Shown here: one piece after another, positions 8,601 through 64,000 of the stretch
How positions within the stretch are numbered: the first letter of the stretch is position 1
How the letters are laid out: every line of letters begins with the position of its first letter
Virus record (IMG/VR): IMGVR_UViG_3300028549_001457
Span: 214,786 to 278,785 of that record
Origin: a virus
Taxonomy: Duplodnaviria > Caudoviricetes
Direction: 5' to 3' (one strand)
Length of the DNA stretch: 64,000 bases
Notes under the pieces: generated by a model
The model's database searches: none
What the model was told of the DNA's origin: nothing
Seen by the model: the letters and a program-made list of their open reading frames with translations, nothing else
Position numbers and translations under genes: made by a program

Positions 8601-8933
8601 CTTAACAATAAAGATCTTGAGAACGAAATTCAGCTTCTGCAATGTGAGTTGCGTCCTGGGAATCGAATTAAGGTTGAGGCCCCCCACGGAGACGAATACC
8701 ACGATGATAGAGCTGACGCTATCGCAAGAGCTTGCTGGGTGGCCATGGGCTTCCTAGAGTCACGAGGGTCAGGAAAGGCTCCAGCTCAGCAGGTAACTCG
8801 TATGGGGACCGTCTCGGGTAACCCTGGGTATATGACCGACAGGGGTGCAGTTTCTCGCTACCGAGCAAGTGCCGCTAGTGACCCTAGATCCTTTGCTCGG
8901 ATGATGGCTATCAAGCAGAGTAAGAAGAGATAA
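5640..8933 (+). CDS. terL: Terminase large subunit, intein-containing
   Basis: Walker A GRRSGK(T/S) interrupted by an intein, Walker B VCDEIAHW, nuclease motifs YGFDLG, YDQWS, HDDRADA. Upstream of the portal gene. Confidence 0.9.
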   Translation: MSLLANSLNKRVKRNLVSILDFAEAAWGPQIELTPAQRFSVKLIYKIPLDDKAKVIRVWDKFKENLLYTLTETEYRKYLNEEVGRLNLTHDMAHIEGNFSTFIRCWGRRSGKTCLHSTLINTHDNGLVKISDLWPLEDKVKDNYMPLISPTFVMTDRGWKQATEIYYGGVKKLLKLKLSNGISVEPSPEHKFRTLDLEGAYVWKLAGDFVVGDTFCLLAETPISEAPTSKDTLESALFLGMLYGDGWWGDEYSLGLCSHKSEWGLVNFVDSFLTTHELSHRKSVYTTNSNVWAWTIHASSGRPFKRTWGLTSYQESQKRVSEKILAFPPEARKAFLSGLLATDGHVTKDLGHFEITLKPKGLIEDIQQLFLSLGVHSTIHQKVVKPKPGNQGGTYWKLTTVGANTNKLLDIFKYCPLKRKTEELLTKQAKHSYKSSFGAYDNLLPRFERIFSQHSFGYHTDRTKSFKITPKGFNDYYAYYQKYLEVYAHAHTLSASDLLHFQKANNRRTTGLEIGRAISKAIADYRKDSQDSQIGQSLPSPEFTKELEELKWIFDTIIPLEIVSIEESEGEVYDLHVPDGNTYLANGIVSHNSEITALDMAYGIYLLLEKYNPHDYYHMPPNTEIFIPVLGTSQDSSKRTFRKVRNMLSSSGYFTNYCNKEDLQELFCKIYTPFQREQNAQFPSIIVQAFPLSESQVRGPASYRSVCDEIAHWPHRGAVSDLEVLKAIEPSLATFKTSEDSHSEAMIFLISNAGVRSGQFFEMIEKAKKEGDNASAIVYQAPTCELNPTRISSHELLAYFNRYGDTAYRTEYQSEFVDSISQWLSMEELNEMFNQSRSNNTIRQNNPTLAYQYFPKAIWPQYFYGFDLGLKNDAAAVAICHWETNELLATRKLVFDYVDRRKAGEGQYAHKKELTGDDIVEWLYQLSQVYPIADGVYDQWSGTLFGQMLAKKGIKGLRMESFTESTNSLVYLSFRALSLNQELNIPTLNNKDLENEIQLLQCELRPGNRIKVEAPHGDEYHDDRADAIARACWVAMGFLESRGSGKAPAQQVTRMGTVSGNPGYMTDRGAVSRYRASAASDPRSFARMMAIKQSKKR
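5976..7415 (+). mobile_element. Intein with LAGLIDADG homing endonuclease in the TerL P-loop (~480 aa; starts at 5976 Thr or 5979 Cys)
   Basis: (T)CLHSTLINT..., block B SPEH, LAGLIDADG blocks FLGMLYGDG and FLSGLLATDG, block F VYDLHV, block G GIVSHN followed by +1 Ser. Confidence 0.92.
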
Positions 8934-9483: not shown

Positions 9484-12180
9484 ATGACAAAGAAAAAAGT
9501 TGCCGCAGCAAAGCCCACAAGTATCCCAGCTTCATTTAGTGGGAGTTCTGTGACTACCTCCGTTTCTCTAGGTGTCCCTAAGTATTCTCAATCCATGTCT
9601 TCTGTGGAGAGAATGGATAATCTGCGTCAGATGCGTAGCCAAAAAACAGCCTCGTCCCACACGGCTCTTTTTGGGGTTGGTGGTGGTATGGGTGGGGCTA
9701 CTGGATCTCTCAATCCTTCAAATTACACTAACCCTTATACCCATAACTTCCCGGTAGATATTCTTGAACGTCCGCAAAGTAGGCAGGAGCAGATCGAGTG
9801 GAACGTCAGATGGTACCGTGAGAACCCCATTGTTAGGCGGGTAATTGATCTTCATTCTCAGCTACCGCTGTCTAAAATGACTATCACAAAACCTGCTTCG
9901 TCTTCACAGGCATTTAGCAATTATGTCCATAAATTCTTCTTGGACATGGCTAAGAATATGAAGCTGATACCTAAATTGAGAAGCAACCTGGGGAAGGCAT
10001 ATTGGCTTCATGGGGATGATTTCATCTTCCTAGAAGACCAGAAATTAGACCCTAATGCTACGAATGATAGTGAGTATCAAACAGTTCCAAGTGAATACGA
10101 TAACCAAGCTAGAACAAACTTCTTTGACGTCCACCGGCATATACATACGTCATCCCAAAAAGATTGGGACGTCAAATACGCGAAAATGCTAGCAAATCCC
10201 CTGTTTGCACTGGTCCCCCAATTGCGAGAGCAGGCCCTTCAGGGGTCAACCCCTCGTCCCTCGGGGCCTTTCTTAGATGAGTGTGAATTTAAAGATGTTT
10301 TTGGTAATGACGCAAACTCGTTTCTACAAGTAATCCATACACTTAAAAATGCGGCTTACGAGTTGAAGAAATTTGCTGATACCATTAATGGTAAGCGTAA
10401 AGCGGATATTTCTCGTCTAAATCCCTTGGTGCTTGCTAAGTTAGGTCCTGAGTTTTTATCGTATAAACATCACAGTGCGTATGTAGCCTACAAAAGTGGA
10501 TCTGTTAAGACTGCAGAAGTTAAGGTTGCGGCTGAGGATTCTGAGGGTCCCAATGATGTAGATATGGCACTTGATCCATCCAAACGTCCGGTGTTTAAGC
10601 TCATCGGGTTGGACCCCATTAATGTCCAGAATATCCCAAGAAATGAACGCTCTGTTAGCCCCACGCCAAACCTTGATTTTCAGAAGTTCTTGCAGGATAA
10701 CCCGACTATTCAGAAGGCGCTTTCGGAGCTACCTAATCCAAATGAGCCCGTTCAAATCAATAAAACTGAGGAGGATGTCAGTGTAATGGTGTATGGACCC
10801 GATGGGGTTACGCCGTTGCGAGAGGATGATACTTTTGCGAAAACCCCAGAGGAAGATTCAGACATGGGTATGGGGGATATAGCCGACTTAGACATGGGGC
10901 CACTCCCAGATGACATTATGGCCTCCCCCGAAAATGACCCTGAATATATTGAAAATCTTGAAATCTATAATAAAAACTTAGTTCGCAAGAAGGAGCTTCT
11001 TGAAAAACTAATAGATGAATTAACGTCTAAAGCAACCGACTATAGATGCTTTGCTAATATTAAATATCCTAAATATAAGGGTTGGCAAGCTATGCGGTCC
11101 TTGCCTCCCCATCAAATTGAGGTGGCAAGAAAATCCAATTCAGATGTTAAAGAAATATTTTATATCCCATCTGAAGAAGAAGCCGCAACTATCCAAGCCA
11201 ATTTTGATGATTTATCTGAGGAGGCTCAAGGCTACTGGAAGGCTAAAAAGCGGCTGTTGTTATCGTCTGAAACATCAAATGAGCCCAGTCTAACCAATAA
11301 GGACCTTCCCGCAGACGGGTCTTACTGTGTCCAAGTATCTAACGCCCGTTCTGACTTTGAGTTGTATGGGCATGGATTAGTAGAGCCCTGTTTACGTGAC
11401 TTGATTCACGATGATAAAATTGGGCAGGTAAAGAGCCAAACTTTCGCTAGGAATATGCAGCCTAAGAGACTCGTGGTGGCGGAGGGAGTCGATGACGCTA
11501 CGTTGGCCAAACTACAGGATATGGTGGATGCTTCCACGGTAGACCCAGACGTCTCTATTATTACTAATTATCCAGTTACTTGGCAAGAAATGGGTGTTGG
11601 AGACCGCATTCAGAGTTTTGAAGGTGAGTATTCTCATATTCTTACCAATTTAACTGCTGGATTAGCGTTCTTCCAGGAGTTTATTACTGGACAGATCTCC
11701 TATGGTGGGTCTAAGACTCCACAGGAAATCATGAACACTATGTATTTAGCCTTCAGAGAAGACATTTCATTTTTTATCCAGGAGTGCATCTTTAGACCTG
11801 TTGCAGAACGTAAAGGTTTTTATGATGTGGATGAATTTGGGCAGAAAATCCTTATATACCCAAATATATCATTCTCCAGATTGGCTATCCGTGATGCCGG
11901 TGATACCTATGACATGCTAATAAATCTCTACCTTAAGGGTTCCGTATCTATTTCTAGAATTTATGAGATCCTGAATATTGATGAAGAAGAGGAAACCCAG
12001 AAACTTGAGGATGAACTCTTTACTATTAAGGACCCCAAATTCACAGAGCTTCTTGCGGGTATCTACCAGAATGTTGCACAGACCCTCGTTGAACGAACTA
12101 ACATAACTGAAATGTTAGCCAAGAATATGGGTTTGACATATGAAGAACCCTCAGATGATGGTGGAGGCCCTCCTCTATAA
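9484..12180 (+). CDS. Portal protein with a long insertion
   Basis: 898 aa, RBS GAGGT, follows terL. Portal-like segments WYRENPIVRRVIDLHSQLPLSKM, YWLHGDDF, YGHGLVEPCLRDL, NLTAGL, ECIFRPVAERKGF. Confidence 0.7.
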   Translation: MTKKKVAAAKPTSIPASFSGSSVTTSVSLGVPKYSQSMSSVERMDNLRQMRSQKTASSHTALFGVGGGMGGATGSLNPSNYTNPYTHNFPVDILERPQSRQEQIEWNVRWYRENPIVRRVIDLHSQLPLSKMTITKPASSSQAFSNYVHKFFLDMAKNMKLIPKLRSNLGKAYWLHGDDFIFLEDQKLDPNATNDSEYQTVPSEYDNQARTNFFDVHRHIHTSSQKDWDVKYAKMLANPLFALVPQLREQALQGSTPRPSGPFLDECEFKDVFGNDANSFLQVIHTLKNAAYELKKFADTINGKRKADISRLNPLVLAKLGPEFLSYKHHSAYVAYKSGSVKTAEVKVAAEDSEGPNDVDMALDPSKRPVFKLIGLDPINVQNIPRNERSVSPTPNLDFQKFLQDNPTIQKALSELPNPNEPVQINKTEEDVSVMVYGPDGVTPLREDDTFAKTPEEDSDMGMGDIADLDMGPLPDDIMASPENDPEYIENLEIYNKNLVRKKELLEKLIDELTSKATDYRCFANIKYPKYKGWQAMRSLPPHQIEVARKSNSDVKEIFYIPSEEEAATIQANFDDLSEEAQGYWKAKKRLLLSSETSNEPSLTNKDLPADGSYCVQVSNARSDFELYGHGLVEPCLRDLIHDDKIGQVKSQTFARNMQPKRLVVAEGVDDATLAKLQDMVDASTVDPDVSIITNYPVTWQEMGVGDRIQSFEGEYSHILTNLTAGLAFFQEFITGQISYGGSKTPQEIMNTMYLAFREDISFFIQECIFRPVAERKGFYDVDEFGQKILIYPNISFSRLAIRDAGDTYDMLINLYLKGSVSISRIYEILNIDEEEETQKLEDELFTIKDPKFTELLAGIYQNVAQTLVERTNITEMLAKNMGLTYEEPSDDGGGPPL

Positions 12181-13580
12181 TGACCAAGTCTTGCCTTGAT
12201 CTATTAAGGGATAATTTTGAGACCCTCCGTAAGGGTGGGACCATCCCACTTGAGGGTCTTTCACCTGAGTGTAGTGAATTTGTCTCTATGCTAAATGATC
12301 TCGCAAAACCTTGGGATTCTGAGCGTAAAAGACTAGCTAAAGATCGTCTTTTTATTAGCAGTATCCTGGATTCAATCCCCCAGGGGGTGTTTTGGAAGGA
12401 CACAGATAGTGTGTTCCTGGGGTGCAACCGCCCTTTCGCGGATATGAATAAACTATCTATGGATAAAGTTATAGGAAAAACTGACTACGAACTGGTGGAT
12501 AGTAGTTTAGCGCTACACTTCAGATCAGAGGATCTTGAGGTGTTGACAACTTTGAAAAGAGTCTACTCCTTGAGTCCACCCTCGGATAGTAAACAACGCT
12601 ACACACTTACCACAAAATGTCCTTTAATAGTTAATGATGTTCCTACTGGAGTTATCGGAGTTTCAGAAGATATCACGGATAGAAAAATTGCGGAGCTTCA
12701 GCTCAGCTTAAGTGAGGTTAAGTTTAGAACGCTAACAGAATCTCTAACTGACATTGTATGGATGATGGACCAATCTTTTAATATGTCTTATGTAAACCCT
12801 GCTGTGACTAGGTATACCGGGTTTACCGTGGATGAGATTTTAAAGCTACCTTTAGAAAAACGATACGCCCCTGGAACGGTTAAAACTATCCAAAAACGCC
12901 TTCGCTTTTTAGATGACCCTACGTATATAGGGGACTCAGTAGAGGCAGAGGTCTACCGTAAGGATGGGTCTACGATTTGGATGCTGACTAGATATACTGT
13001 GCTGAGGGGTGCTAAGGGGGAGGTATTTGGGTTTGTCGGCGTGTCTACAGATATCACTGCTCAGAAGAAAAAAGAGTCTATCCTCACGGATTTTGCAACT
13101 CTGGATGGGCTTACTGGTGTGATTAACCGTAGATATTTTATGGAACGGTTGAATGATGAGATGGATCGAGCTTTTAAATATAAAATACCTCTATCCGTGG
13201 CTATGCTAGACATAGATTACTTCAAGAAAATTAATGATACATATGGGCACCCAGCCGGGGACTCAGCTCTGCTCCAATTTGTGGGTGTCATTCAGGGGTG
13301 TCTACGCCAATCAGATTTCCTAGGTAGATTGGGAGGTGAGGAGTTTGCAGTGGTTCTTCAGGGAACTTCTGTAGATGCCACAAAGATTCTCGTGGAGAGA
13401 ATTAGACAATCTGTGTCTGAAACAGTTGTTTCACATGGGGCACTTTCGTTTAACATGACTGTCTCATCCGGTATTACTGGATTAAAAATGACTGATACGG
13501 CAGAGGCTATTATGGCTCGGGTAGATCAGGCCCTTTACGATGCTAAGGGATCCGGGCGAAATTGCTACCGAGTTATTTGA
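12180..13580 (+). CDS. PAS-PAS-GGDEF diguanylate cyclase
   Basis: Two PAS/PAC units (ILDSIPQGVFWKD...DITDRK; LTESLTDIVW...DITAQK), DGLTGVINRR, DIDYFKKINDTYGHPAGD, I-site RQSD, A-site GGEEF. ATG overlaps the portal TAA. Confidence 0.95.
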   Translation: MTKSCLDLLRDNFETLRKGGTIPLEGLSPECSEFVSMLNDLAKPWDSERKRLAKDRLFISSILDSIPQGVFWKDTDSVFLGCNRPFADMNKLSMDKVIGKTDYELVDSSLALHFRSEDLEVLTTLKRVYSLSPPSDSKQRYTLTTKCPLIVNDVPTGVIGVSEDITDRKIAELQLSLSEVKFRTLTESLTDIVWMMDQSFNMSYVNPAVTRYTGFTVDEILKLPLEKRYAPGTVKTIQKRLRFLDDPTYIGDSVEAEVYRKDGSTIWMLTRYTVLRGAKGEVFGFVGVSTDITAQKKKESILTDFATLDGLTGVINRRYFMERLNDEMDRAFKYKIPLSVAMLDIDYFKKINDTYGHPAGDSALLQFVGVIQGCLRQSDFLGRLGGEEFAVVLQGTSVDATKILVERIRQSVSETVVSHGALSFNMTVSSGITGLKMTDTAEAIMARVDQALYDAKGSGRNCYRVI

Positions 13581-14508: not shown

Positions 14509-14769
14509 CCTTTCTTGTGAGAACTATATATGGCTAGTCCACTCATACCTACTACGGTTGATTCCCGTGCTTACAAAGCACCCATTTCAAATCCTACCAG
14601 ACAATCCAAACTAATTATTGCTGCAACAGCAGTAGGTCTCTGGGAAGGTAAAGACCATCACATCGCCACCTGGACAGGGTCCTCCTGGAAGTTTATTAAG
14701 CCTATCCAGGGGGTCTCTACCTGGATTGTTGATGAGGGAGTTGAGGCTACTTGGGATGGATCTGCATGG
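14509..14769 (+). repeat. 261-bp direct repeat, copy 1 (upstream region plus N-terminal DUF2793-like module)
   Basis: Matches 15648-15908 with 8 mismatches counted by eye. Confidence 0.92.
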
Positions 14770-15567
14770 GTGGTTCCTTCTGGTGGAAGCGGCGGAGGTG
14801 AATCTCGTGAAATCCTTCATGCTGATCGGATCTATTACGTCAGGACAGACGGTAATGACAGCAATACCGGCCTAGTCAATGATGCTAGTGGAGCTTTCCT
14901 CACTATCCAGAAAGCAGTCAATGTTGTTAGCTTAGACATAGACATGAATATATTCCAGGTGACCATCAAGGTCGCAGATGGAACTTACAACACGAGCGGG
15001 ACCAATTTGTTATTGGGTGAATATGTCGGGAACTGGAAGCCCCCAATCATTGAGGGGAACATCACAACACCATCAAACTGTATAATATCGAATACGTCCA
15101 GCCCGTTGGTTAATTGCATGAGATCACAGTGGACTATTCGAGGGTTTAGGGTTATCGCAAATGGCTCGCTAGCTTTGTTCGCGCAACTGGGAGCATACCT
15201 TACTATTTCGGATATCTCTTTTGGATATGCACACGATCAGCATATGTGGGCTAGAAGCTCTGTAATCCAGATCATTGGGAATTACTCTATTGATGGCCCC
15301 GCTATCCATCACATTATCGCGGAAGACGGGGGATACGTTGGCACCATGGGGTATTCGATAGCAGTATTTATTGCATCAGCCTATACGATAAGCATCATGG
15401 CCTATGCAATAAATGGGTCTACGATTAGGCTCAAACCAGCCACGTTCACTGGGGCACAGCCTGTTGGTATCAGGTATGTCGGTGAGGCTCTATCGGTGAT
15501 TATTGCGAACAACGCAATACCCGGAACCGTTGGGGGTAATGTAACTGGCGGAAGTGTGAAACTATAA
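14530..15567 (+). CDS. Fibre/spike protein: DUF2793-like N-terminus plus beta-helix-like C-terminus
   Basis: GLWEGKDHHIATWTGSSWKFIKP (DUF2793-like); YYVRTDGNDSNTG..FLTIQKAV...IKVADGTY, typical of the start of pectin-lyase-like beta helices. Confidence 0.6.
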   Translation: MASPLIPTTVDSRAYKAPISNPTRQSKLIIAATAVGLWEGKDHHIATWTGSSWKFIKPIQGVSTWIVDEGVEATWDGSAWVVPSGGSGGGESREILHADRIYYVRTDGNDSNTGLVNDASGAFLTIQKAVNVVSLDIDMNIFQVTIKVADGTYNTSGTNLLLGEYVGNWKPPIIEGNITTPSNCIISNTSSPLVNCMRSQWTIRGFRVIANGSLALFAQLGAYLTISDISFGYAHDQHMWARSSVIQIIGNYSIDGPAIHHIIAEDGGYVGTMGYSIAVFIASAYTISIMAYAINGSTIRLKPATFTGAQPVGIRYVGEALSVIIANNAIPGTVGGNVTGGSVKL

Positions 15568-15647: not shown

Positions 15648-15908
15648 CCTTTCTTGTGAGAACTATATATGGCTAGCCCCCTCATTCCTACTACGGTTGA
15701 TTCCCGTGCTTACAAAGCACCCGTTTCAAATCCTACCAGACAATCCAAACTGATTATTGCTGCAACAGCAGTAGGTCTCTGGGAAGGTAAAGACCATCAC
15801 ATCGCCACCTGGACAGGGTCCTCCTGGAAGTTTATTAAGCCCATCCAGGGGGTCTCTACCTGGATTGTTGACGAGGGAGTTGAGGTTACTTGGGATGGAT
15901 CTGCATGG
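15648..15908 (+). repeat. 261-bp direct repeat, copy 2
   Basis: Offset 1139 nt from copy 1. Confidence 0.92.
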
Positions 15909-16370
15909 AATACCCCTGTTGTTACAGCTACCTACATTGGATTAGACAATGTAAATAATACTTCTGACATGGATAAACCCGTGTCAACAGCTACGCAGAT
16001 TGCTCTGACGTCATTGGCACTACGGGCACCTTTTCGCTGGTTTTATGAAACTCCTCTTAATATCCTAGATCGCCAGCCTGTGTATCGCGTGGAAACACTA
16101 TCGAATTTAAAGGCAATTCGCTGGTTTAGAAATACCCTTACTGCTGTGTCCGGAGTGGCTTCCATAGCTATTTATAAAAATAGTAGCTCAACAGCACTCT
16201 ACACAGTTACGATCCCAGATAATGCCTCCGGTAAATTGTGGGTTGATGCCCTTACGGGATTAAGTTCCCCTCTTGTAGTCGGTGATTATCTTGAGGTGGT
16301 TGTGACCGCAGGCAACGCCACCCTAGATAATCTTACTGTTCAATTAGATATTGAGCAGGCTGTCTACTAG
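15669..16370 (+). CDS. DUF2793-like fibre protein paralog
   Basis: First ~80 aa nearly identical to 14530; C-terminal domain (FRWFYETPLNILDRQPVY...) paralogous to the C-terminus of 23151. Confidence 0.65.
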   Translation: MASPLIPTTVDSRAYKAPVSNPTRQSKLIIAATAVGLWEGKDHHIATWTGSSWKFIKPIQGVSTWIVDEGVEVTWDGSAWNTPVVTATYIGLDNVNNTSDMDKPVSTATQIALTSLALRAPFRWFYETPLNILDRQPVYRVETLSNLKAIRWFRNTLTAVSGVASIAIYKNSSSTALYTVTIPDNASGKLWVDALTGLSSPLVVGDYLEVVVTAGNATLDNLTVQLDIEQAVY

Positions 16371-16378
16371 GATCTTAA

Positions 16379-17650
16379 ATGGCCTTCAAAAGTCCGCATG
16401 TGTTAGTTGAACTCGATGGAGTCGCATATAGATACTTCCCTTTACATCTTTGTCTTGTAGATGCTGGGGAGAGTCTTGTTGAGTTTGAAAGGCCCCCAAA
16501 AACACCTAGAGATTTCCAGGAATTTGACCCTAAGGATCTAAGGTCTATTAACATATCTTTAACATCCAAGTGTAACTTTGCCTGTAAATACTGTTATGCA
16601 GCAGACGCACACGCTAATAATGAGCCGGATATGTCCCCTGAGATGGTGTCCGCCATTATATCACTTGTATCCCAAGTTAATGGGACCGTAAAGGTCTCCT
16701 TCCTACCTCAGGGGGAGTCCCTCACAACTGAGAGTTCTCTCTTTGAACTCTGTGAAAAGCTTCTCGCTACGGGGAAGGTGCATTCATTCTCATTAACCAC
16801 CAATTTATCTTTAATAACTAATAGAAATATCCATCTTATTAAGAAGTATTTCTCTAGGGTTTCCGCATCATTTGATGGAAGTGAATATATCCAGAATTTC
16901 CAGAGACCTTTCTTAGGGGGACAGGATACCTTTGACATAGTTAAACAAGCTTTGTTGCTACTCATTGAGAATAGGATTCCCTTTGGGATTCGAGGGACTA
17001 TTACTGATCCAATGCTAGATTATATAACAACAATTGCTGACTTTTTAGATACCCTCCAAGAACATCCGGGTTATACGGATATGTTTAAAGAACCTATTCG
17101 AGTTGTTTTACAGCCTTATGTAGGAAGTGTGTCCGACCCGTTAACATGTCAAGATCATCTGCGTTTTTTGGGAGCGTTTGAAAGGCTTAAACAACGACAG
17201 ATGGGTAAGCTATGGCATGTTTCCTATGGGGATATGGAAGAGTCTGAATATCTTCCTATTAAGTTTGTTGGGTGTGGATTAACCAACCCACATACCTCTT
17301 TAACCTTCATGAATAACGGGCTAGTGGCAACTTGCCATAGAAAGTCAACCCCAGAGAGTTCCGCGTTAGATCCTCTTTTTGTGGGTAGGTTTGATTCAAC
17401 ACAGGGCAACTATGTATTTAACTTTGACAAGCTATCCAAATTTACTTCAGTTGTTGGAGATTGCGTTTCTTGTGTAGCTAGATTTTCTTGTGCTGGAGGT
17501 TGTTTTATAACTAATCAGGATGCAGATGCCAAGAGATTTAGATGCAACTTGGTTAGACACGATCTTTTAAGTCACCTGAGAAAATCTAAGATAGCTTTAC
17601 TTCAGCGAGGCTCCACAATACCTTTTTTAGGAGTAGAAAATGGCGATTGA
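16379..17650 (+). CDS. Radical SAM/SPASM-domain enzyme
   Basis: CNFACKYC (CxxxCxxC), TTNLS, SFDG, RGTIT. SPASM cysteines CG...CH...CVSCVARFSCAGGC...RC (CX2CX5CX3C...C). Confidence 0.93.
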   Translation: MAFKSPHVLVELDGVAYRYFPLHLCLVDAGESLVEFERPPKTPRDFQEFDPKDLRSINISLTSKCNFACKYCYAADAHANNEPDMSPEMVSAIISLVSQVNGTVKVSFLPQGESLTTESSLFELCEKLLATGKVHSFSLTTNLSLITNRNIHLIKKYFSRVSASFDGSEYIQNFQRPFLGGQDTFDIVKQALLLLIENRIPFGIRGTITDPMLDYITTIADFLDTLQEHPGYTDMFKEPIRVVLQPYVGSVSDPLTCQDHLRFLGAFERLKQRQMGKLWHVSYGDMEESEYLPIKFVGCGLTNPHTSLTFMNNGLVATCHRKSTPESSALDPLFVGRFDSTQGNYVFNFDKLSKFTSVVGDCVSCVARFSCAGGCFITNQDADAKRFRCNLVRHDLLSHLRKSKIALLQRGSTIPFLGVENGD

Positions 17651-18104
17651 TATATTAAGACCATCTTCATGGGACACTACCGCTAGCATATCCACCCCAG
17701 CATATGCTTATGATGGCAATACCACGACAGTAGCAACTGTAACCAACAATACTACGGGGCTTTCCATAACAAGGAATCTACAAGGATTCTCTGCGGCTCA
17801 ACATACGTATACTACGCTAACGCTAAAGATAGATCTGATGCCCGATGTCTTTACAGAGCAAGCTGGGTCCAGGGTTACTGTCCAAGTAAGCACCGATGCT
17901 ACGAATTATGCCACCATATTTATAGGAGACGATAGTAATAAAATGCTTCGTCAGACAATCTCCTATGCACTCCCTGTAGGTACTAACATGGCTAATGTTC
18001 GTGTTAAATTTATTCTTCTAGCTGACGAGTCTTTTGTGTGTAATGTAAAGGATGGAGTGTTGTGTTCCTTTGGTGACTGTATTTACCCTGATGCACCTGT
18101 GTAA
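17640..18104 (+). CDS. Virion-type beta-sandwich protein ending in three C-x3-D motifs
   Basis: RBS AGGAG, start overlaps the rSAM 3' end. C-terminus CNVKD-GVL-CSFGD-CIYPD-APV*. Body resembles 57723 (AYDG...VRF). Confidence 0.75.
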   Translation: MAIDILRPSSWDTTASISTPAYAYDGNTTTVATVTNNTTGLSITRNLQGFSAAQHTYTTLTLKIDLMPDVFTEQAGSRVTVQVSTDATNYATIFIGDDSNKMLRQTISYALPVGTNMANVRVKFILLADESFVCNVKDGVLCSFGDCIYPDAPV

Positions 18105-18153
18105 TACCTAATAAATTGATATGTAATGACAAATATATAAATTGAGGTGATAC

Positions 18154-18780
18154 ATGAGTTATGCTATTGCATATGTATATGATGCGTGGATAGAGGGTAA
18201 CTGGACCACCCCTCCCCCTACAGTTTCTTCATGGTCTGGGTCAGCCACAATTGGATCAACTATAACCGTAACAGGCGCTAATTTTACGGGAGCAACTGCG
18301 GTTAAGATAGGTTCTAATTCGGTATCCTCATACACCGTTGTATCTGCATCTTCCATTACATTTACGCTTACCACGGCTCACCAAGGGTGGTCGGGGGTTC
18401 TTTCAGTTACAACTGCTAGTGGGACTGGATCTGGGGGTTCAACGTTAACCGTCCCAACAATCTCCGTTGGGGCTCCTACTCCTGGTGGTCAGTATACTTC
18501 TGTGGGGTATACACGACAGTTCACAAGCGGGGGGGTTTCGGGGGCTGTTAACACCTCCGTAACATGGTCAACCAACGGCGGGTCCATTACCGGATCTGGA
18601 CTCTACACCGCCCCTGGTACCTCAGGCACATACACTATTTGGAATACTTCAGTTGCGGATTCTTCCAAGAGTAATAGCTGCACTGTGTATATAGTTGCTC
18701 TCCCAACAGCTAGCCTTTCCGCCACTAGGGGAACCATCACCGCTGGTCAATCCACTACAATAACACCAATATTTACTTAA
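18154..18780 (+). CDS. IPT/TIG plus Ig-like repeat protein
   Basis: RBS GAGGTG. GSTITVTGANFTGATAVKIG...VVSASSITFT (IPT/TIG) and VNTSVTWSTNGGSITGSGLYTAP (Ig-like). Confidence 0.75.
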   Translation: MSYAIAYVYDAWIEGNWTTPPPTVSSWSGSATIGSTITVTGANFTGATAVKIGSNSVSSYTVVSASSITFTLTTAHQGWSGVLSVTTASGTGSGGSTLTVPTISVGAPTPGGQYTSVGYTRQFTSGGVSGAVNTSVTWSTNGGSITGSGLYTAPGTSGTYTIWNTSVADSSKSNSCTVYIVALPTASLSATRGTITAGQSTTITPIFT

Positions 18781-18792
18781 AGGGGACATGGA

Positions 18793-21700
18793 ATGAGCGG
18801 TTCAATTGATCAAGGTATTGGTGTAGTAACTAGCGGTCAAGCTTATAGCACTGGGGCACTCTCCGCCTCCAGAACGTATACCCTTACATCTACTAACGCT
18901 GCAGGGCAGAGTGCAACTTCCCAGGTAACTGTGAATGTTGTCGCGGCTACCATTATTAATAGTTTTGTGGGGGCTACAACTGTAACTGCTGGAACTAGCA
19001 CCACGCTATCCTGGAATGTTTCTAATGCTACTTCTGTAAATATCTCCCCTACAGTAGGTGGGGTGATGGCGTCTGGTAGCACCTCAGTAACTCCCTCGGC
19101 TTCTCAGACATACACTCTTACAGCAACAAATGCAGCGGGGGATTCCACCACCTCTTCCCAAACAGTTACTGTAGTCCCAGCGCCAATCATCTCAAGTTTT
19201 ACTGGCCAGAAGACAATCACTGCTGGACTCTCGACAACTTTATCTTGGGTAGCTTCTAATGGAACTAGTTATTCTATTTCACCTACCGTTGGGTCTGTAG
19301 CTGCTTCTGGAACAACTGGGGCACTGTCTCCAGGGGCCTCTCAGACGTATACATTAACAGTAACTAACGCTGCAGGAACTTCCGTAACGGCTACGCAAAC
19401 GATCTATGTAGTAGCGGCACCTTCTATTACATCGTTCACGGCTTCTAATACAAATCCGTTATATGGTGCATCCGTTACAATTACACCAACGTTCTCAAAT
19501 GGATCCGGTAGTATTACCGGAGTGGGAGCTGTTGCAAGTGGCACCGCTTATGGGACGGGAGCTGTCACCTCTACGCTAGCGTATACTTTAACGGTGTCCA
19601 ATGGGGCCACAACCCCTGCGACTACAACCGCAGGGGTCTCAATCACACCCCAGACTGTATCGGTTTCAGCGATTTCTCCCGCAGCGCCTACAAAGTCTGT
19701 AAATACCCAGACTACATTTAGTTCCTCTGTAAGTGGAGCGATTAATTCCACAATCAACTGGACTTGCACAGGTGGATCTATCACATCCGGGGGTATATGG
19801 ACTGCACCAGCAACTCCTGGTAATTACACCATTACAGCAACATCTGCCGCTGATGGGTCTAAATTTACATCTACTGCAGTTAACTTAGTTGCCCTTCCAA
19901 TTGCTACTAGTTTAGTTCCAGCCACTTCTAATCCTCTATACGGAGCTACGGTAGACATTACTGCCACCTTCTCAGATGGGTCTGCTATCGTTGATAATGG
20001 CGTGGGCGGTATCGGTTCTTCACCCAAAGCTTTTACTACTTCAGCTATTACTTCAGCTCAAACCTATACTTTGACCGTAACAAATTTGGCTGGGGCTACG
20101 GCCACTACTTCTACAACTGTGATTCCCCAGACTGTGTCTGTTTCGGCTATTTCTCCAGCGGCTCCTACAAAGTCTATAAATACCCAGACTACATTTAGTT
20201 CCTCTGTAAGTGGAGCGCTTAATTCCACAATTAATTGGACTTGCACAGGAGGGTCCATTACCGCAGGAGGGGTTTGGACTGCTCCTGCAACTCCTGGAAA
20301 TTACACCATTACAGCAACATCTGCCGCTGATGCAACAAAGGTGGCAACTACATCTGTAACGTTAGTAGCTTTACCAACCATTTCTAATTTTGTAACTGCG
20401 CTAGCAAATATCACCACTGGGGATTCTACAACAATTACCCCCACATTTACAGGCACTTCTGCCAGGATTGGCACCACTGGGTCGGGTTCTTCGGATATTA
20501 ACCCTTCCGTGTCTAGTGGAACTGGTGTTCTAGTAACACCTAACTCCAATAAAACATACACATTAACCGTGTATAACACTGCGGGGGATTTTACTACTGC
20601 TAGTGTTGGTGTAAATGTATACGCCGTTCCCACAATTTCCCTAGTTCTAACGGAAGCTAGTGGAACTTCCAATGATGGTATTATTACAGAGGGTGCCTCG
20701 GTAACACTTACCCCCACGTTCACGGGTGGGACCGCTACCTTAGGAACTACCGGGTCCGGTTCATCTAATACGTCTGCAAGCTGCACTAGCGGTGTGGGGG
20801 TGGTCTCTACATTAGGTTCCTCACAGACTTATACCGCCACAGTTACAAATCCAGCGGGTAGGGTTGTAACAGCTACGGCCTCTGTCATTAGTTATGCCGC
20901 TCCTAGTATCTCCAGCTTTACAGTAGCTAGTAATCCCATTGATAGAGGCGCTATAGGGACACTGTCGTATGTGTTTGCAAACGGTGTCGGGGTCATTAAC
21001 AACGGGATTGGTTCGGTTGCCAGTGGCCTCACTTCGGATACTCCAGCTCTTACCGTGGGCACTACTTACACACTTACCGTCACCAACCCCGCTGGGACAT
21101 CAGCCCAGGCTACTGCAACGGTTAACGTAAATGCTGTTGCAGTCTCTCTAGCATCCCCAGGAAGTCCTGGCAACCAAACAACTTCTCGCTACAGAGCAAC
21201 AAGCTACGCAGTTCCCCACACGGGGGGTTCCTTATTAGGGACTCCAGGTAATCTCATAGATGCAAACCCTAGCTCATATACCACCGGGACTGCCAATCCC
21301 GCTGGACTGTATGGGATGCAGATTTATAATTTCCCCAGCATTTCAGATATAACCTCCTTATCAATCCCTTCTATAGCTTTTGCTGGTGGGTCTGGAGCAC
21401 TCTCTACCTCATGTTGGATTAGCCTAGATAATGGTGCAAGTTGGATATCGTCTCCTACCCTTGTCCCCAATGGGGCAGGGTTAACTTTGACCCCTGCTCA
21501 AGTCCAAACTCTCGGGAACTTGAGTAATCTACGCCTATCAATTCAATTTAACATATCGGCCAATGGGTTCTTTTGGGTTTCTGATTTCCCCGTGGACGTA
21601 ACCTACTTAAATGCTGCTAGCATTACGAAATCAGTTGGAAGTCAGGTTCAATACTACGCTACCGTTACAGGGGCTGTAAATACTGCAGTTACTTGGACAT

Positions 21701-23079
21701 GCTCAGGTGGCTCCATAACTTCTAGCGGGTTATATACCGCCCCAGCAACTATTGGGACATACACAGTTACTGCAACTAGCCAGTCAGATAATACCAAGTC
21801 ACGTACACATACCGTAACAACTGTTGCGATGCCAACTGCTTCACTAACTGCTTCTTCGAATCCAGTCCCCTATGGATCTGCAGCATTTCTAACTCCAACC
21901 TTTACTAATGGAGTGGGGGTTCTCAGTGGGTTTGGGACCGTTACGTCAGGCCAAGCTAACTTGAGCACGGGGGCTATGGTAGGGACTCCAAAATCCTATA
22001 CGCTAACAGTTACGAACGCTGCAGGCGACTCCGCTATAGCTTCTATTACCATTACTAATACTGAAGTAACACTTACCCCCATTACGGTTTCAAACGCTAT
22101 TACAACTGTAGGGACTATTGAACAATTCTATGCAACTGCGGCTGGGGCGGCTTTCAATCTCATTACTTGGACAGCATCTGGCCCAGGTGGGGGTGGGTCC
22201 TGGACGGGGAGTTCCTGGACGTCCCCTGGGACCCCCGGAACCTATACTATTACAGCAACTGCTCAAGCTGATGGGGTCACCTCTCGGAGCTTTACGGAAA
22301 CTGTGGTAGCTGCCGCCACCGCAAATCTAGTAGCTGATACCACAAACCCTCTTGTTGGAGCCACTGTAGCCCTAACTCCAACGTTCACGGGTGGGACTGC
22401 GATACTTGGGACTTCTGCAGGGTCCAATAATGTATCTGCGAGTGCTATCTCTGGTCAGGAGATCTTGGTATCCAGTGCTGCTAATACATACACGCTACGT
22501 GTGACCAATGCGGCGAGTGACTTTGTGGATAGCTCTGTTTTGGTAGCTCCACAGATAGTTGTAGTGAATACTCCATCGCAGGAGTTGGGATTTACATATC
22601 AGACCATTAACACCAGTAGAGCATATACCGCAGAAGTTACTGGGGCGGTAGACACCTCAGTTGCGTGGTCTACCACGGGGTCTGGTATTGGTATTTGGGA
22701 TTCTAACTATTGGACTTCTGAGGCAACAGGTGCCTTTACAATAACAGCAACGTCTGTGGTAGATCCCGCTAAGTCCAATTCAAGAGTTATACAAGTCTTA
22801 GCGGCCCCAAGCTTAAGTATTGAAGGGGACTCATCAGTACTTCATGGTGGCACTGTAGCTATCACTCCTACTTTCTCGGTAGACGGGGGTGCTGCTTCTG
22901 TGAGTTTAGATCACGGTATTGGGTTTGTAACTAATGGGCAGGCAATCCAAGTAACCCCCTCCGAAGACATTACTTATACATTAACGATAACCAATCTAGC
23001 AGGGGACACCTTTACCGTAAGTAAGCTTATTACTGTTGATATCCCTAAGTCGGGTAAAAAATCTGCAGCAGCAAGTTAA
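18793..23079 (+). CDS. Large Ser/Thr-rich Ig-like repeat protein (virion surface or fibre)
   Basis: 1428 aa of recurring TYTLTVTNAAG, TPTF.NG and W.C.GGSIT..G..TAPA repeats. Confidence 0.8.
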   Translation: MSGSIDQGIGVVTSGQAYSTGALSASRTYTLTSTNAAGQSATSQVTVNVVAATIINSFVGATTVTAGTSTTLSWNVSNATSVNISPTVGGVMASGSTSVTPSASQTYTLTATNAAGDSTTSSQTVTVVPAPIISSFTGQKTITAGLSTTLSWVASNGTSYSISPTVGSVAASGTTGALSPGASQTYTLTVTNAAGTSVTATQTIYVVAAPSITSFTASNTNPLYGASVTITPTFSNGSGSITGVGAVASGTAYGTGAVTSTLAYTLTVSNGATTPATTTAGVSITPQTVSVSAISPAAPTKSVNTQTTFSSSVSGAINSTINWTCTGGSITSGGIWTAPATPGNYTITATSAADGSKFTSTAVNLVALPIATSLVPATSNPLYGATVDITATFSDGSAIVDNGVGGIGSSPKAFTTSAITSAQTYTLTVTNLAGATATTSTTVIPQTVSVSAISPAAPTKSINTQTTFSSSVSGALNSTINWTCTGGSITAGGVWTAPATPGNYTITATSAADATKVATTSVTLVALPTISNFVTALANITTGDSTTITPTFTGTSARIGTTGSGSSDINPSVSSGTGVLVTPNSNKTYTLTVYNTAGDFTTASVGVNVYAVPTISLVLTEASGTSNDGIITEGASVTLTPTFTGGTATLGTTGSGSSNTSASCTSGVGVVSTLGSSQTYTATVTNPAGRVVTATASVISYAAPSISSFTVASNPIDRGAIGTLSYVFANGVGVINNGIGSVASGLTSDTPALTVGTTYTLTVTNPAGTSAQATATVNVNAVAVSLASPGSPGNQTTSRYRATSYAVPHTGGSLLGTPGNLIDANPSSYTTGTANPAGLYGMQIYNFPSISDITSLSIPSIAFAGGSGALSTSCWISLDNGASWISSPTLVPNGAGLTLTPAQVQTLGNLSNLRLSIQFNISANGFFWVSDFPVDVTYLNAASITKSVGSQVQYYATVTGAVNTAVTWTCSGGSITSSGLYTAPATIGTYTVTATSQSDNTKSRTHTVTTVAMPTASLTASSNPVPYGSAAFLTPTFTNGVGVLSGFGTVTSGQANLSTGAMVGTPKSYTLTVTNAAGDSAIASITITNTEVTLTPITVSNAITTVGTIEQFYATAAGAAFNLITWTASGPGGGGSWTGSSWTSPGTPGTYTITATAQADGVTSRSFTETVVAAATANLVADTTNPLVGATVALTPTFTGGTAILGTSAGSNNVSASAISGQEILVSSAANTYTLRVTNAASDFVDSSVLVAPQIVVVNTPSQELGFTYQTINTSRAYTAEVTGAVDTSVAWSTTGSGIGIWDSNYWTSEATGAFTITATSVVDPAKSNSRVIQVLAAPSLSIEGDSSVLHGGTVAITPTFSVDGGAASVSLDHGIGFVTNGQAIQVTPSEDITYTLTITNLAGDTFTVSKLITVDIPKSGKKSAAAS
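19648..20332 (+). repeat. Internal 208-bp direct repeat (19648-19855 and 20125-20332) in the Ig-repeat gene
   Basis: PQTVSVSAISPAAPTKS.NTQTTFSSSVSGA.NSTINWTCTGGSIT...TATSAAD is duplicated at an offset of 477 nt with high DNA identity. Confidence 0.85.
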
Positions 23080-63693: not shown

Positions 63694-64000
63694 TGTTTTC
63701 AACCACATACATTACTGAGTATCTCTCAAAAAAGAAGGGCTCCCCCGTAACAGTATCTCTTCAAGGGACTAAATTCGTGTCGAACTGCCCGAATCCATCC
63801 CATGAGGATAAACATCCCAGTTGTGTTGGGGACATGGGTACCGGGGCTTATCGGTGTCTTGGGTGTGGCTGTTCTGGGACTATTGATGAGTCTGAACTTA
63901 AGAATGAACCCTGCTGTTCTGATTGTTCTGATTGTTCTGATTGTTCTGATTGTTCTGATTGTTCTGATTGTTCTGATTGTTCTGATTGTTCTGATTGTTC
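63693..64000 (+). CDS. Partial ORF: CHC2-type Zn finger followed by (Cys-Ser-Asp)n
   Basis: GTG 63693 with RBS AGGAG; MFSTTYITEYL...CPNPSHEDKHPSC..GAYRCLGCG...CC(SDC)n. Runs off the window, so it is absent from the ORF track. Confidence 0.7.
   Translation, partial: MFSTTYITEYLSKKKGSPVTVSLQGTKFVSNCPNPSHEDKHPSCVGDMGTGAYRCLGCGCSGTIDESELKNEPCCSDCSDCSDCSDCSDCSDCSDCSDCSDC
63915..64000 (+). repeat. Perfect 9-bp tandem repeat (TGTTCTGAT) x9.5, continuing to the window end
   Basis: Read directly from the sequence. Confidence 0.97.

Follow-up and report, generated by a model that had tools for sequence, protein, structure and literature searches.

A phage radical SAM/SPASM enzyme gene overlapping the gene for a fiber-module protein with a CX3D tail: possible thioether stapling of a virion-associated protein

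RESULTS

A radical SAM/SPASM gene in a tail-fiber module

The window analyzed here is a stretch of 64,000 nucleotides from an uncultivated giant phage of microbial mats with a genome of 278,785 bp; coordinates are those of the window, and the features from 15669 to 23079 lie on the plus strand. The locus falls within a tail-fiber module that includes three DUF2793 fiber-type genes (14530, 15669, and 23151; Pfam and PHROGs), a TIG-domain protein (18154), and a 1,428-aa Ig-repeat protein (18793). Directly 5' of the enzyme gene is a DUF2793 tail-fiber-type gene (15669..16370, with Pfam and PHROGs tail-fiber matches), whose product contains zero cysteines and has a C-terminal domain in common with a fiber of the syntenic phage contig L084. 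It is followed by the gene for a 423-aa radical SAM/SPASM enzyme (gp16379; 16379..17650), by that for the 154-aa candidate substrate (gp17640; 17640..18104), by a short spacer, and by the genes for the TIG-domain protein (gp18154; 18154..18780) and the Ig-repeat protein (gp18793; 18793..23079). An initial reading made from the sequence alone had placed the enzyme gene among fiber and Ig-domain genes, and the DUF2793, TIG, and Ig-repeat neighbors bear this out.

The enzyme gene is the sole radical SAM gene found across the 278,785-bp genome. Its neighbors other than gp17640 have no Cys cluster, and no protease or exporter gene was found near the locus. A promoter and terminator scan of the region from 13.5 to 23.5 kb yielded nothing beyond shuffled expectation, and no RNA holder for the stretch was found among those listed. 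Assembly errors can be ruled out for the tail, the stop, and the gene split described below, because a contig from a second, independent microbial-mat study is identical across 16907-18533.

The enzyme resembles PapB but has a short N-terminus

Membership of gp16379 in the radical SAM superfamily is indicated by a CX3CX2C motif, CNFACKYC (16571..16594, residues 65-72), which provides the radical SAM cluster ligands, and by a PF04055 match at 45.3 bits (cut-off, 29.5). The SPASM region (17273..17545) contains seven cysteines (C299, C319, C362, C365, C371, C375, and C389) in the subfamily arrangement CX9-15GX4C ... CX2CX5CX3C ... C, here C299-X14-G-X4-C319 (17273-17335) and C362-X2-C-X5-C-X3-C375 (17462-17503), then C389. 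In the SPASM subfamily this motif serves two auxiliary [4Fe-4S] clusters; here the seven residues and the CX3CX2C cysteines are invariant in an alignment of gp16379 with seven relatives (8 sequences). The Pfam SPASM model PF13186 gave no match at an E value of ≤0.01, and support for the SPASM call therefore comes from the motif together with full-length alignment to models of CteB and PapB. The PF04055 match and the seven-Cys motif thus agree with the sequence-only reading, which had recognized a complete radical SAM plus SPASM gene.

We placed the enzyme relative to PapB, CteB, and QhpD by HMM score ranking. The top NCBIfam model among 18,950 was that of PapB (NF047865), with 98.6 bits over profile positions 2 to 323 of 330, followed by QhpD (TIGR03906, 76.5 bits); the SCIFF/CteB, nif11, and anaerobic sulfatase maturase (anSME) models matched as well, at 60 to 75 bits. 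All 8 nearest relatives of gp16379 likewise had PapB as their best-scoring model. However, the enzyme falls inside no curated family cut-off. The PapB score is under one third of the 340 bits set for that family, and transfer of specificity from PapB is therefore weak. QhpD membership would take 453 bits, and the neighboring genes encode fiber, TIG, and Ig proteins; the scores for the CrpC-type model TIGR04463 (39.8 versus 525 bits) and for the anSME model TIGR03942 (60.9 versus 349 bits) were likewise below their cut-offs. The link to ranthipeptide-type chemistry proposed from the sequence alone was partly supported in that PapB is the nearest of all models, and weakened in that the PapB cut-off was missed and the N-terminus is short.

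CteB, the SCIFF (thermocellin) maturase that acts on CteA, is the best PDB sequence match (5wgg; E value, 1e-15) and hence the closest solved structure by sequence, with an alignment that begins in the radical SAM core and runs on across the SPASM domain. It resembles the gp16379 clade in lacking the upstream eighth SPASM Cys, which is not conserved in our alignment of the clade, and differs in having a 90-residue N-terminal RRE. CteB links Cys to the Cγ of Thr and acts on a 45-mer peptide that contains six cysteines. In gp16379 only about 53 residues precede the core, residue 91 of CteB aligns to residue 50, and the helical part of the N-terminus is deleted relative to the related enzymes P0018, P0019, and P0003. 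Judged from these alignments, the N-terminus is not long enough to contain a full RRE, although a remnant is possible, and this leaves substrate recognition unexplained. The enzyme is one of two members of a divergent branch in which the N-terminus is shortened.

The overlapping gene encodes a protein whose only cysteines form three CX3D motifs

As the initial reading had noted, the enzyme gene overlaps the start of gp17640; the overlap, from the gp17640 ATG to the enzyme stop codon (17648-17650), is 11 nt long, and the ATG is preceded by AGGAG. The protein has no Pfam or PHROG match and forms an orphan family of three members. AlphaFold2 (AF2) models of gp17640 alone were poor (pLDDT, 42.6; 48.4 with 3 sequences) and unsuitable for a fold search. 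The gp17640 model in the ESM Atlas has a pTM of 0.67 and TM scores of 0.58 to 0.67 to predicted models of proteins with F5/8-type-C, cleaved-adhesin, and related beta-sandwich domains, which suggests a jelly-roll or carbohydrate-binding-module-like beta-sandwich without its last strand.

The sole cysteines of gp17640, at residues 134, 142, and 147, form the motifs CNVKD (18039-18053), CSFGD (18063-18077), and CIYPD (18078-18092) in a C-terminal tail (18039..18092), exactly where the sequence-only reading had located them; all three motifs lie within the last 21 residues. In 200,000 composition-preserving shuffles of gp17640, three CX3D motifs arose by chance with a probability of 3.4e-4 and three cysteines inside 14 residues with a probability of 0.019; genome-wide, the probability of Asp at Cys+4 is 0.062. 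Among the 2,289 six-frame ORFs of at least 30 aa in the genome, gp17640 is the only one with three CX3D motifs. A search of the genome for other candidate substrates produced no second ORF of this kind; the one other Cys-rich C-terminus is a (CSD)n repeat that lies 46 kb away, where the contig ends. The tail, encoded next to the enzyme, has the form of a PapB-type substrate, with CX3D motifs whose acceptor is C-terminal to Cys, and the anSME target motif, C/S-x-P/A-x-R, is absent from it.

The initial reading was not supported on two further points. It had described the Cys segment as a loop; instead, it is a free C-terminal tail, predicted to be disordered (AF2 pLDDT of <50 over residues 129-154), at a break in a domain whose last strand comes from gp18154 in the complex model described below. 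It had also offered paralogous domains lacking CX3D, in gp57723 and inside gp18793, as an internal control. We rejected this control, as the paralogy is barely or not supported by sequence comparison: gp57723 is a weak match (BLASTP E value, 0.004; hhalign probability, 15%), and relatedness of the internal gp18793 domain is undetectable (hhalign probability, 0.2%).

The Cys tail lies at a predicted domain break

Between gp17640 and gp18154 is an AT-rich 49-nt spacer (18105..18153) with stops in all three frames and the ribosome-binding site GAGGTG, identical in the independent sample. The three-frame stops and the identical contig rule out read-through, a frameshift, or an assembly error joining the two genes. 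The protein encoded downstream, gp18154, consists of a TIG/IPT domain (Pfam TIG) plus an Ig-like domain and is 41% identical to the N-terminus of a 1,644-aa protein of L084, in which its homolog is fused with that of gp18793.

The first 18 residues of gp18154 (18154..18207) were modeled as a beta-strand that completes the gp17640 sandwich in trans. The complex prediction gave an ipSAE of 0.90 (best control, 0.00). Of 80 solved complexes, 58 attained that mark, as did 2 of 110 mismatched pairs; these counts are a rough guide here, since our own alignments were used. The pLDDT was 90 for the partner and 83 for the gp17640 chain, and 97% of contacts agreed between runs. The modeled strand contacts gp17640 residues 4-6, 57-67, and 126-130, the last of which touch gp18154 residue 4; the tail itself is left unplaced. 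The strand is kept in L084, as is an acidic residue at strand position 10 (D here, E in L084). The model supports, without showing, that gp18154 residues 1-18 supply the strand missing from the gp17640 beta-sandwich; if they do, the tail sits at a conserved domain break. The domain split and the Cys tail occur together in both phages.

A second phage contains the same gene pair

The only close homolog of the enzyme is 41% identical to gp16379, and an 87%-identical copy of that homolog is found in L084. There the enzyme gene is followed directly by a gene for a 156-aa gp17640 homolog (BLASTP E value, 5e-12) and then by that for the Ig-repeat protein, which begins with the same strand as gp18154; in each of the two phages the enzyme gene either overlaps or directly adjoins the tail gene. 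Beyond L084, no close DNA or protein relatives were found in GenBank phages, in IMG/VR with either protein as the query, or in JGI metagenomes with the three-member alignment. Just 5' of the L084 enzyme is a gene for a CxxCxxCC metal-chelating-domain protein, which has no counterpart in the source phage genome.

The gp17640 homologs, P0166 and P0167 (one in the syntenic contig and one further homolog), share its tail in part. Each of the three family members has three cysteines, all in the tail, and exactly four residues are conserved in all three tails: the three cysteines and the first Asp. Conservation statistics are thin for a family of three in which two members are about 80% identical. 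The first CX3D is conserved in both homologs despite A/S substitutions within the ring, whereas the other two are not. In the homologs, no carboxylate stands at +4 from the middle Cys, and the last Cys lies four residues ahead of the C-terminal Gly (C-I-N/Q-L-G-COOH). PapB crosslinks leader-CSANG in vitro, which has the same Cys-to-C-terminal geometry (PMC12373016).

Related enzymes adjoin Cys-rich tails

Distant kin of the enzyme (29 to 32% identity) in loci L003, L004, and L088 adjoin Cys-rich-tailed proteins in tail-fiber-like neighborhoods, and the pairing of a PapB/CteB-like radical SAM/SPASM gene with a fiber-type protein that has a Cys-rich C-terminus was seen in these three loci, in L012, and in others. 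Among 78 IMG/VR loci with related enzymes, 24 had, no more than 3 kb off, an ORF of at least 100 aa whose last 40 residues include at least 6 Cys. Such ORFs numbered 7.1 per 100 kb at that range versus 1.6 further away, and PapB was the top model for 9 of 10 such enzymes. PHROGs names of the distant Cys-tail proteins are mostly "unknown function." The candidate substrates of the relatives bear other motifs (CxCN, CxCQ, and CxCE), and the enzyme relative in L086 belongs to a classical small-peptide cluster. Against these cassettes, the gp17640 tail stands apart in having 3 Cys, PapB-type CX3D rather than CxC motifs, and a position at a break in a domain modeled as completed in trans. The co-occurrence check that accompanied the initial reading thus had a divided outcome: a Cys tail does adjoin the enzyme in L084 and in distant kin, but only the first CX3D is conserved.

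DISCUSSION

A candidate thioether staple in a fiber-module protein

We regard thioether stapling of virion-associated gp17640 by gp16379 as the best reading of this locus, with about an even chance of being right; incorporation of gp17640 into the virion is suggested by its gene context. Most likely, the enzyme turns the tail cysteines into intramolecular thioether (ranthionine-type) rings. We infer the tail as substrate, the thioether chemistry, and the order of events. By analogy with PapB, CteB, and QhpD, each Cys thiolate would bind the open site of auxiliary cluster I, a 5'-deoxyadenosyl radical would take hydrogen from the carbon beside the carboxylate of the Asp at +4, and the resulting carbon radical would be captured by sulfur. 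The product would contain up to three CX3D rings, with a mass change of -6 Da. The substrate would then be a predicted tail-fiber-module beta-sandwich without its last strand, not a small RiPP precursor. With the N-terminal 18 residues of gp18154 modeled as that strand, the stapled tail would come to lie where a cap domain meets a long TIG/Ig-repeat fiber or decoration protein. In one reading of the split, what was once an inter-strand loop becomes a free end, which could be threaded into the enzyme active site before chain assembly.

SPASM enzymes are known to crosslink proteins as well as peptides, as QhpD does on QhpC and CrpC on CrpA (PMC13692751). The closest chemical parallel is with PapB of Paenibacillus polymyxa, which forms six thioethers in the CXXXD motifs of PapA, the precursor of the ranthipeptide freyrasin, and requires the acceptor to be C-terminal to Cys (PMC12373016). 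The phage pair shares the radical SAM/SPASM architecture and, in the candidate substrate, CXXXD motifs with that polarity. It differs in that gp16379 is below the family cut-off, with no room for a full RRE; in that three motifs occur in a 154-aa protein with a predicted folded domain, rather than six in a short leader-core peptide; and in that the locus is without export or protease genes. QhpD, the SPASM enzyme of quinohemoprotein amine dehydrogenase maturation, introduces three Cys-to-Asp/Glu thioethers into a subunit that stays in a larger assembly (PMC13692751); it uses an RRE and a leader in an enzymatic setting, whereas the phage locus has no dehydrogenase genes and its setting is structural. 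Ranthionine crosslinks have been experimentally shown for CrpC/CrpA of Methanococcus voltae, where the substrate is a large Cys-rich protein with C-terminal C-X-X-Q/D motifs and recognition is partly domain to domain (PMC13692751). CrpC, however, is archaeal, cellular, and equipped with an RRE, and CrpA has ten 17-residue Cys repeats against the three cysteines of the gp17640 tail.

Alternative explanations

The tail could be modified by a different chemistry: sactionine formation (S to Cα), links to non-Asp acceptors, conversion to formylglycine as by anSME, or fewer than three links. We consider this unlikely but a serious contender. It would accommodate the single CX3D conserved in the gp17640 family, the CxCN, CxCQ, and CxCE motifs in the relatives' candidate substrates, and the 60- to 75-bit matches to SCIFF/CteB, nif11, and anSME models of an enzyme within no curated cut-off. 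Set against it are the consistent rank of PapB as top model across the clade, the carboxylate at Cys+4 in two of the three positions when the homologs' C-terminal Gly is counted, and the missing anSME target motif. That the four residues kept in all three tails are three Cys and the first Asp could instead point to a metal-binding (Cys3-Asp) or disulfide element, with the enzyme acting elsewhere or on nothing in the locus; the metal-chelating-domain gene 5' of the L084 enzyme fits with this. We think it distinctly improbable, given that the gene for the enzyme overlaps or touches that for the tail protein in both phages, that a second Cys-rich candidate nearby is absent, and that the enzyme clade is strongly associated with Cys-rich tails. 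An adjacent CC pair is also unusual in a structural Zn site.

The position of the tail raises the prospect of intermolecular thioethers, with tail Cys linked to acidic residues in the gp18154 strand or in a neighboring subunit, which would rejoin the split domain or lock fiber assembly. The tail emerges beside the inserted strand in the model, where gp17640 residues 126-130 contact gp18154 residue 4; strand position 10 stays acidic in both phages; and the split and the Cys tail go together. Yet the last strand of such domains often contains an acidic residue, and matching acceptors already exist within the tail. Known SPASM thioether enzymes, moreover, link intramolecularly, to an acceptor C-terminal to the donor Cys (PMC12373016), and we judge this option very unlikely. 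We give even less credence to gp17640 as a RiPP precursor with an oversized leader, from which a crosslinked 21-residue tail would be cleaved and released as a ranthipeptide directed at the host or at competitors. Its layout of leader plus C-terminal core is RiPP-like, and the L086 relative lies in a classical small-peptide cluster, but the locus lies inside a tail-fiber module with no protease or exporter gene nearby, and the "leader" is a predicted fiber-type beta-sandwich that docks, in the model, on the next structural protein.

To intramolecular stapling by gp16379, our preferred reading, we add a speculative extension that we hold to be improbable as a whole, namely, that the Cys tail and the domain split work together as a single device. 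The split, placed before the last strand of a fiber-cap domain, would let a leaderless enzyme reach the freed tail, and once the gp18154 strand had inserted, the stapled tail would clasp the joint covalently or even be linked to it intermolecularly.

Significance

Enzymatic thioether crosslinks are known from small RiPP peptides; for proteins, we found two experimental cases, that of QhpC and that of CrpA, which was published in September 2026 (PMC13692751). In the literature searched, we found no report of such crosslinks in a virus particle protein. The locus offers an unusually clean test case, with one enzyme, one 154-aa substrate candidate, and three cysteines in the PapB motif, and from this follows a simple prediction of -2 Da per link. 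The two homologs, in which one Asp acceptor is apparently replaced by a C-terminal carboxylate, provide a natural comparison set. An enzyme that acts on a protein tail and needs no full RRE would also be useful in protein stapling.

If the preferred reading is correct, phages would harden part of their host-recognition apparatus against reduction and proteolysis by radical chemistry, a protection that disulfides are unable to give where conditions are reducing or anoxic, as in microbial mats. Should the tail and the split prove to be one device, the locus would represent a redox-insensitive lock that an enzyme installs in a virus particle, and a case of protein-level, RRE-independent substrate recognition for ranthionine synthases.

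Sequence features of the enzyme and its neighbor

The radical SAM/SPASM enzyme gp16379 (423 aa; 16379-17650) carries CNFACKYC at residues 65 to 72 and a SPASM motif of textbook form (C299-X14-G-X4-C319, C362-X2-C-X5-C-X3-C375, C389), and these cysteines are invariant across eight aligned relatives. It is the sole radical SAM gene of the 278,785-bp genome. Its stop codon lies beyond the ATG of the next gene, an overlap of 11 nt, and that gene encodes the candidate substrate gp17640 (154 aa; 17640-18104). The only three cysteines of gp17640 (134, 142, and 147) each have an Asp at +4 (CNVKD, CSFGD, and CIYPD), all within the final 21 residues. A sequence-only reading had started from these features (the CNFACKYC and SPASM gene, the overlap, and the three C-terminal CX3D motifs) to propose thioether stapling of a virion-type protein, and all of them hold at their coordinates.

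Three CX3D motifs arose in 3.4e-4 of shuffles of gp17640, the genome-wide rate of Asp at Cys +4 is 6.2%, and gp17640 stands alone among 2,289 ORFs of the genome in having three such motifs. The finding is real and nonrandom. A contig from another study is identical across 16907-18533, which confirms the gp17640 tail, its stop codon, and the start downstream as real. Because the flanking proteins gp15669 and gp18154 contain no Cys and one Cys, respectively, gp17640 holds the sole Cys cluster near the enzyme.

Exhaustive HMMER searching of 1.84 billion representatives with gp16379 gave 6,262 matches, only three of them at E < 1e-30: the enzyme itself, P0017 (41% identity), and P0018 (32%). Among 18,950 NCBIfam models, the top match was PapB, the freyrasin ranthipeptide maturase (98.6 bits, profile positions 2-323 of 330), followed by QhpD (76.5), nif11-type (74.6), SCIFF/CteB (67.5), and anSME (60.9), every score being far under its curated cutoff. 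PapB was also the top model for all eight of the nearest relatives. The solved structure nearest in sequence is CteB (E 1e-15); its residue 91 aligns to residue 50 of gp16379, and therefore only about 53 residues lie ahead of the core. In the alignment, a segment after the first beta-strands is deleted in gp16379 and P0017 relative to the relatives P0018, P0019, and P0003. Judged from the sequence, the N terminus has no room for a full RiPP recognition element (RRE). In anSME an additional, eighth Cys upstream completes auxiliary cluster I; the gp16379 clade does not conserve it, and C257 is without a counterpart in P0017, a pattern that fits an open coordination site for a substrate thiolate, as in CteB.

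Genomic setting

The window is the final 64 kb of an IMG/VR record with 95% completeness (CheckV). Its source is a giant phage; the nearest named phage by portal is Tunturiibacter phage Tunturi_5 (37% identity). At least two studies of microbial mats have the stretch in their metagenomes. The genes around gp16379 and gp17640 are codirectional and tightly packed, and no promoter or terminator signals at the locus exceeded shuffled expectation. As had been proposed, the enzyme gene sits among fiber and Ig-domain genes, with a fiber-tip-like protein (13664) and DUF2793 fiber-type proteins (14530 and 15669) upstream and a TIG-domain protein (18154), a 1,428-aa Ig-repeat protein (18793), and a third DUF2793 protein (23151) downstream.

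Several other features of the window were recorded. gp14530 and gp15669 share a near-identical N-terminal DUF2793 region of ~80 aa (14530-14790 and 15669-15930), which, with differing distal parts, points to recent fiber-gene duplication or cassette exchange. A PAS-PAS-GGDEF diguanylate cyclase gene, apparently intact (12180-13580; GGDEF E 1e-42), lies directly 3' of a portal-like gene. A 1,097-aa ORF (5640-8933) is probably an intein-bearing packaging gene, since it has intein splicing and LAGLIDADG homing endonuclease domains, and a 766-aa ORF in the late region (25728-28028) has an HD_4 (RelA/SpoT-hydrolase-type) domain. In 63693-64000, a zinc-finger segment of CHC2 primase-like type (CPNPSHEDKHPS...CLGCGC) precedes a perfect tandem repeat of 9 nt (TGTTCTGAT x9.6, starting at 63915) that encodes (CSD)n, runs into the contig end, and probably broke the assembly; its putative Cys/Asp repeat product might be a second radical SAM target.

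Conservation of the pair and its tail

A copy of P0017 (87% identical) occurs on a 105-kb IMG/VR contig, L084, in a locus syntenic with that of gp16379. There, a fiber protein sharing its C-terminal domain with gp15669 is followed by a 118-aa CxxCxxCC (PF03692) putative Zn/Fe-chelating protein (7652-8008), the radical SAM enzyme, a 156-aa gp17640 homolog directly after it (P0166; BLASTP E 5e-12), and a 1,644-aa TIG/Ig protein equivalent to a gp18154-gp18793 fusion, with 41% identity in its first 208 residues. The CxxCxxCC protein, which might be an electron donor or helper, has no counterpart in the source phage genome.

gp17640 had no match in Pfam or PHROG, and profile searching across 5.8 billion proteins gave a family of only three members, with the tails FVCNVKDGVLCSFGDCIYPDAPV (source phage), GGCARGDACCINLG (P0166), and GGCSRGDSCCIQLG (P0167). 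All three have exactly three Cys, none outside the tail, with the whole cluster C-terminal, and all keep the first CX3D despite substitutions within the ring. The second and third are not conserved in P0166 and P0167. The pairing of the enzyme with a CX3D neighbor recurs in L084, where one motif is kept, and the three CX3D motifs are not a conserved feature of the family. In both homologs three residues separate the last Cys from a C-terminal Gly. PapB crosslinks leader-CSANG, joining Cys to the alpha-carbon of the C-terminal Gly, and requires of its acceptor only a carboxylate-bearing residue C-terminal to Cys (PMC12373016). Counting the C-terminal Gly, a +4 carboxylate would be retained at two of three Cys in the family, which we offer as a prediction rather than a result.

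A predicted domain break at the gene boundary

The ESM Atlas model of gp17640 (pTM 0.67) resembles predicted structures of F5/8-type-C, cleaved-adhesin, and similar beta-sandwich domain proteins (TM 0.58-0.67). The N terminus of gp18154 (MSYAIAYVYDAWIEG) is similar to the last strand of gp57723 (FYIKDVYIE), and the 1,644-aa L084 protein has the same opening. The cut between gp17640 and gp18154 is conserved in L084; the second cut, between 18154 and 18793, is not. To test whether this strand could complete the gp17640 sandwich, gp17640 was modeled with residues 1-110 of gp18154 (predict_complex) in three runs with three controls: ipSAE was 0.90 in all three runs and 0.00 in the best control, partner pLDDT was 90, and contact agreement between runs was 97%. 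Of solved complexes, 58 of 80 reach this ipSAE mark, as do 2 of 110 mismatched pairs; the counts apply only roughly here because the alignments were shallow and own-built. In the model, gp18154 residues 1-18 pack on gp17640 residues 4-6, 57-67, and 126-130, which supports but does not show binding. Modeled alone, gp17640 is poorly ordered. The Cys segment had been described as a loop; residues 129-154 instead form a C-terminal tail with pLDDT < 50, and, being disordered in the model, the tail is predicted to emerge as a free end at the chain cut. The paralogs suggested as an internal control were not usable.

Cys-tailed proteins beside more distant enzymes

ORFs of at least 100 aa with at least six Cys in the last 40 residues lie within 3 kb of related enzymes at 24 of 78 IMG/VR loci, and their density is 7.1 per 100 kb close to the enzyme versus 1.6 farther off. 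PapB was the best model for 9 of 10 enzymes near such ORFs, and several of these enzymes begin directly at the radical SAM core. P0019 (29% identity; L004) lies downstream of tail-fiber-like genes and of a 232-aa protein that consists almost entirely of CSCNT/CNCQ repeats; P0018 (L003) is preceded by proteins with Cys-repeat tails as C-terminal parts, and P0023 (L088) by a Peptidase_S74 chaperone gene and a fiber-like ORF with CACESNCSCQCTCTCMTTC at its end. P0003, from a bacterial genome, has as neighbors a second radical SAM gene and a CxCNT-tailed WD40 protein, and P0020 lies within a classical small-peptide cluster. Since PHROGs assigns no function to most of these Cys-tail proteins, a virion role is established only where fiber genes flank them. 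Our literature search found no paper on the pairing of such enzymes with Cys-tailed proteins in phages.

Two further arrangements were seen. L088 encodes a radical SAM/SPASM relative (823-2601) with a C-terminal extension of ~150 aa, Ig-like by eye. The IMG/VR phages L012 (10699-13263), L051, L052, L070, and L071 carry tandem paralogous proteins of 190-237 aa that end in (CTCNCNY)n and then an SDE..K..VEYI motif, within 1.5-3.5 kb of an RRE-less PapB-like radical SAM gene.

Proposed mechanism and alternatives

Thioether stapling, the central idea of the sequence-only reading, is the best available explanation. We propose that gp16379 would thread the disordered gp17640 tail into its active site and join Cys-S to Asp-C-beta within the chain, giving at most three thioether rings; gp17640 would dock on the gp18154 N-terminal strand, after or before crosslinking, and the two chains together would cap a long Ig-repeat fiber or decoration protein. 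We put the chance that gp16379 staples the tail by this route at about even. Some other chemistry on the same tail is unlikely. It is rather improbable that the tail is a metal or disulfide site and that the enzyme is unrelated to it. Intermolecular locking through the tail seems very improbable, and a peptide released from gp17640 more improbable still.

Under the stapling reading, PapB/PapA is the closest counterpart of the pair in motif and enzyme type, and QhpD/QhpC and CrpC/CrpA are the closest in that their substrate is a protein, not a peptide (PMC13692751). Curated cutoffs place gp16379 in none of these three enzyme families. The pair differs from all three systems in the lack of a full RRE, in its location in a phage structural module, and in a tail that is modeled at a domain break completed in trans. 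The combination of a minimal PapB-type substrate and a split domain makes the locus a good experimental entry point. On a 5-Mb bacterial contig (L002, 5001-10934), a radical SAM gene lies on either side of an 861-aa WD40 protein, and one of the two encodes a close relative of gp16379. The WD40 protein ends in a Cys-rich tail of CxCNT repeats, and the locus may represent protein-tail modification outside phages.
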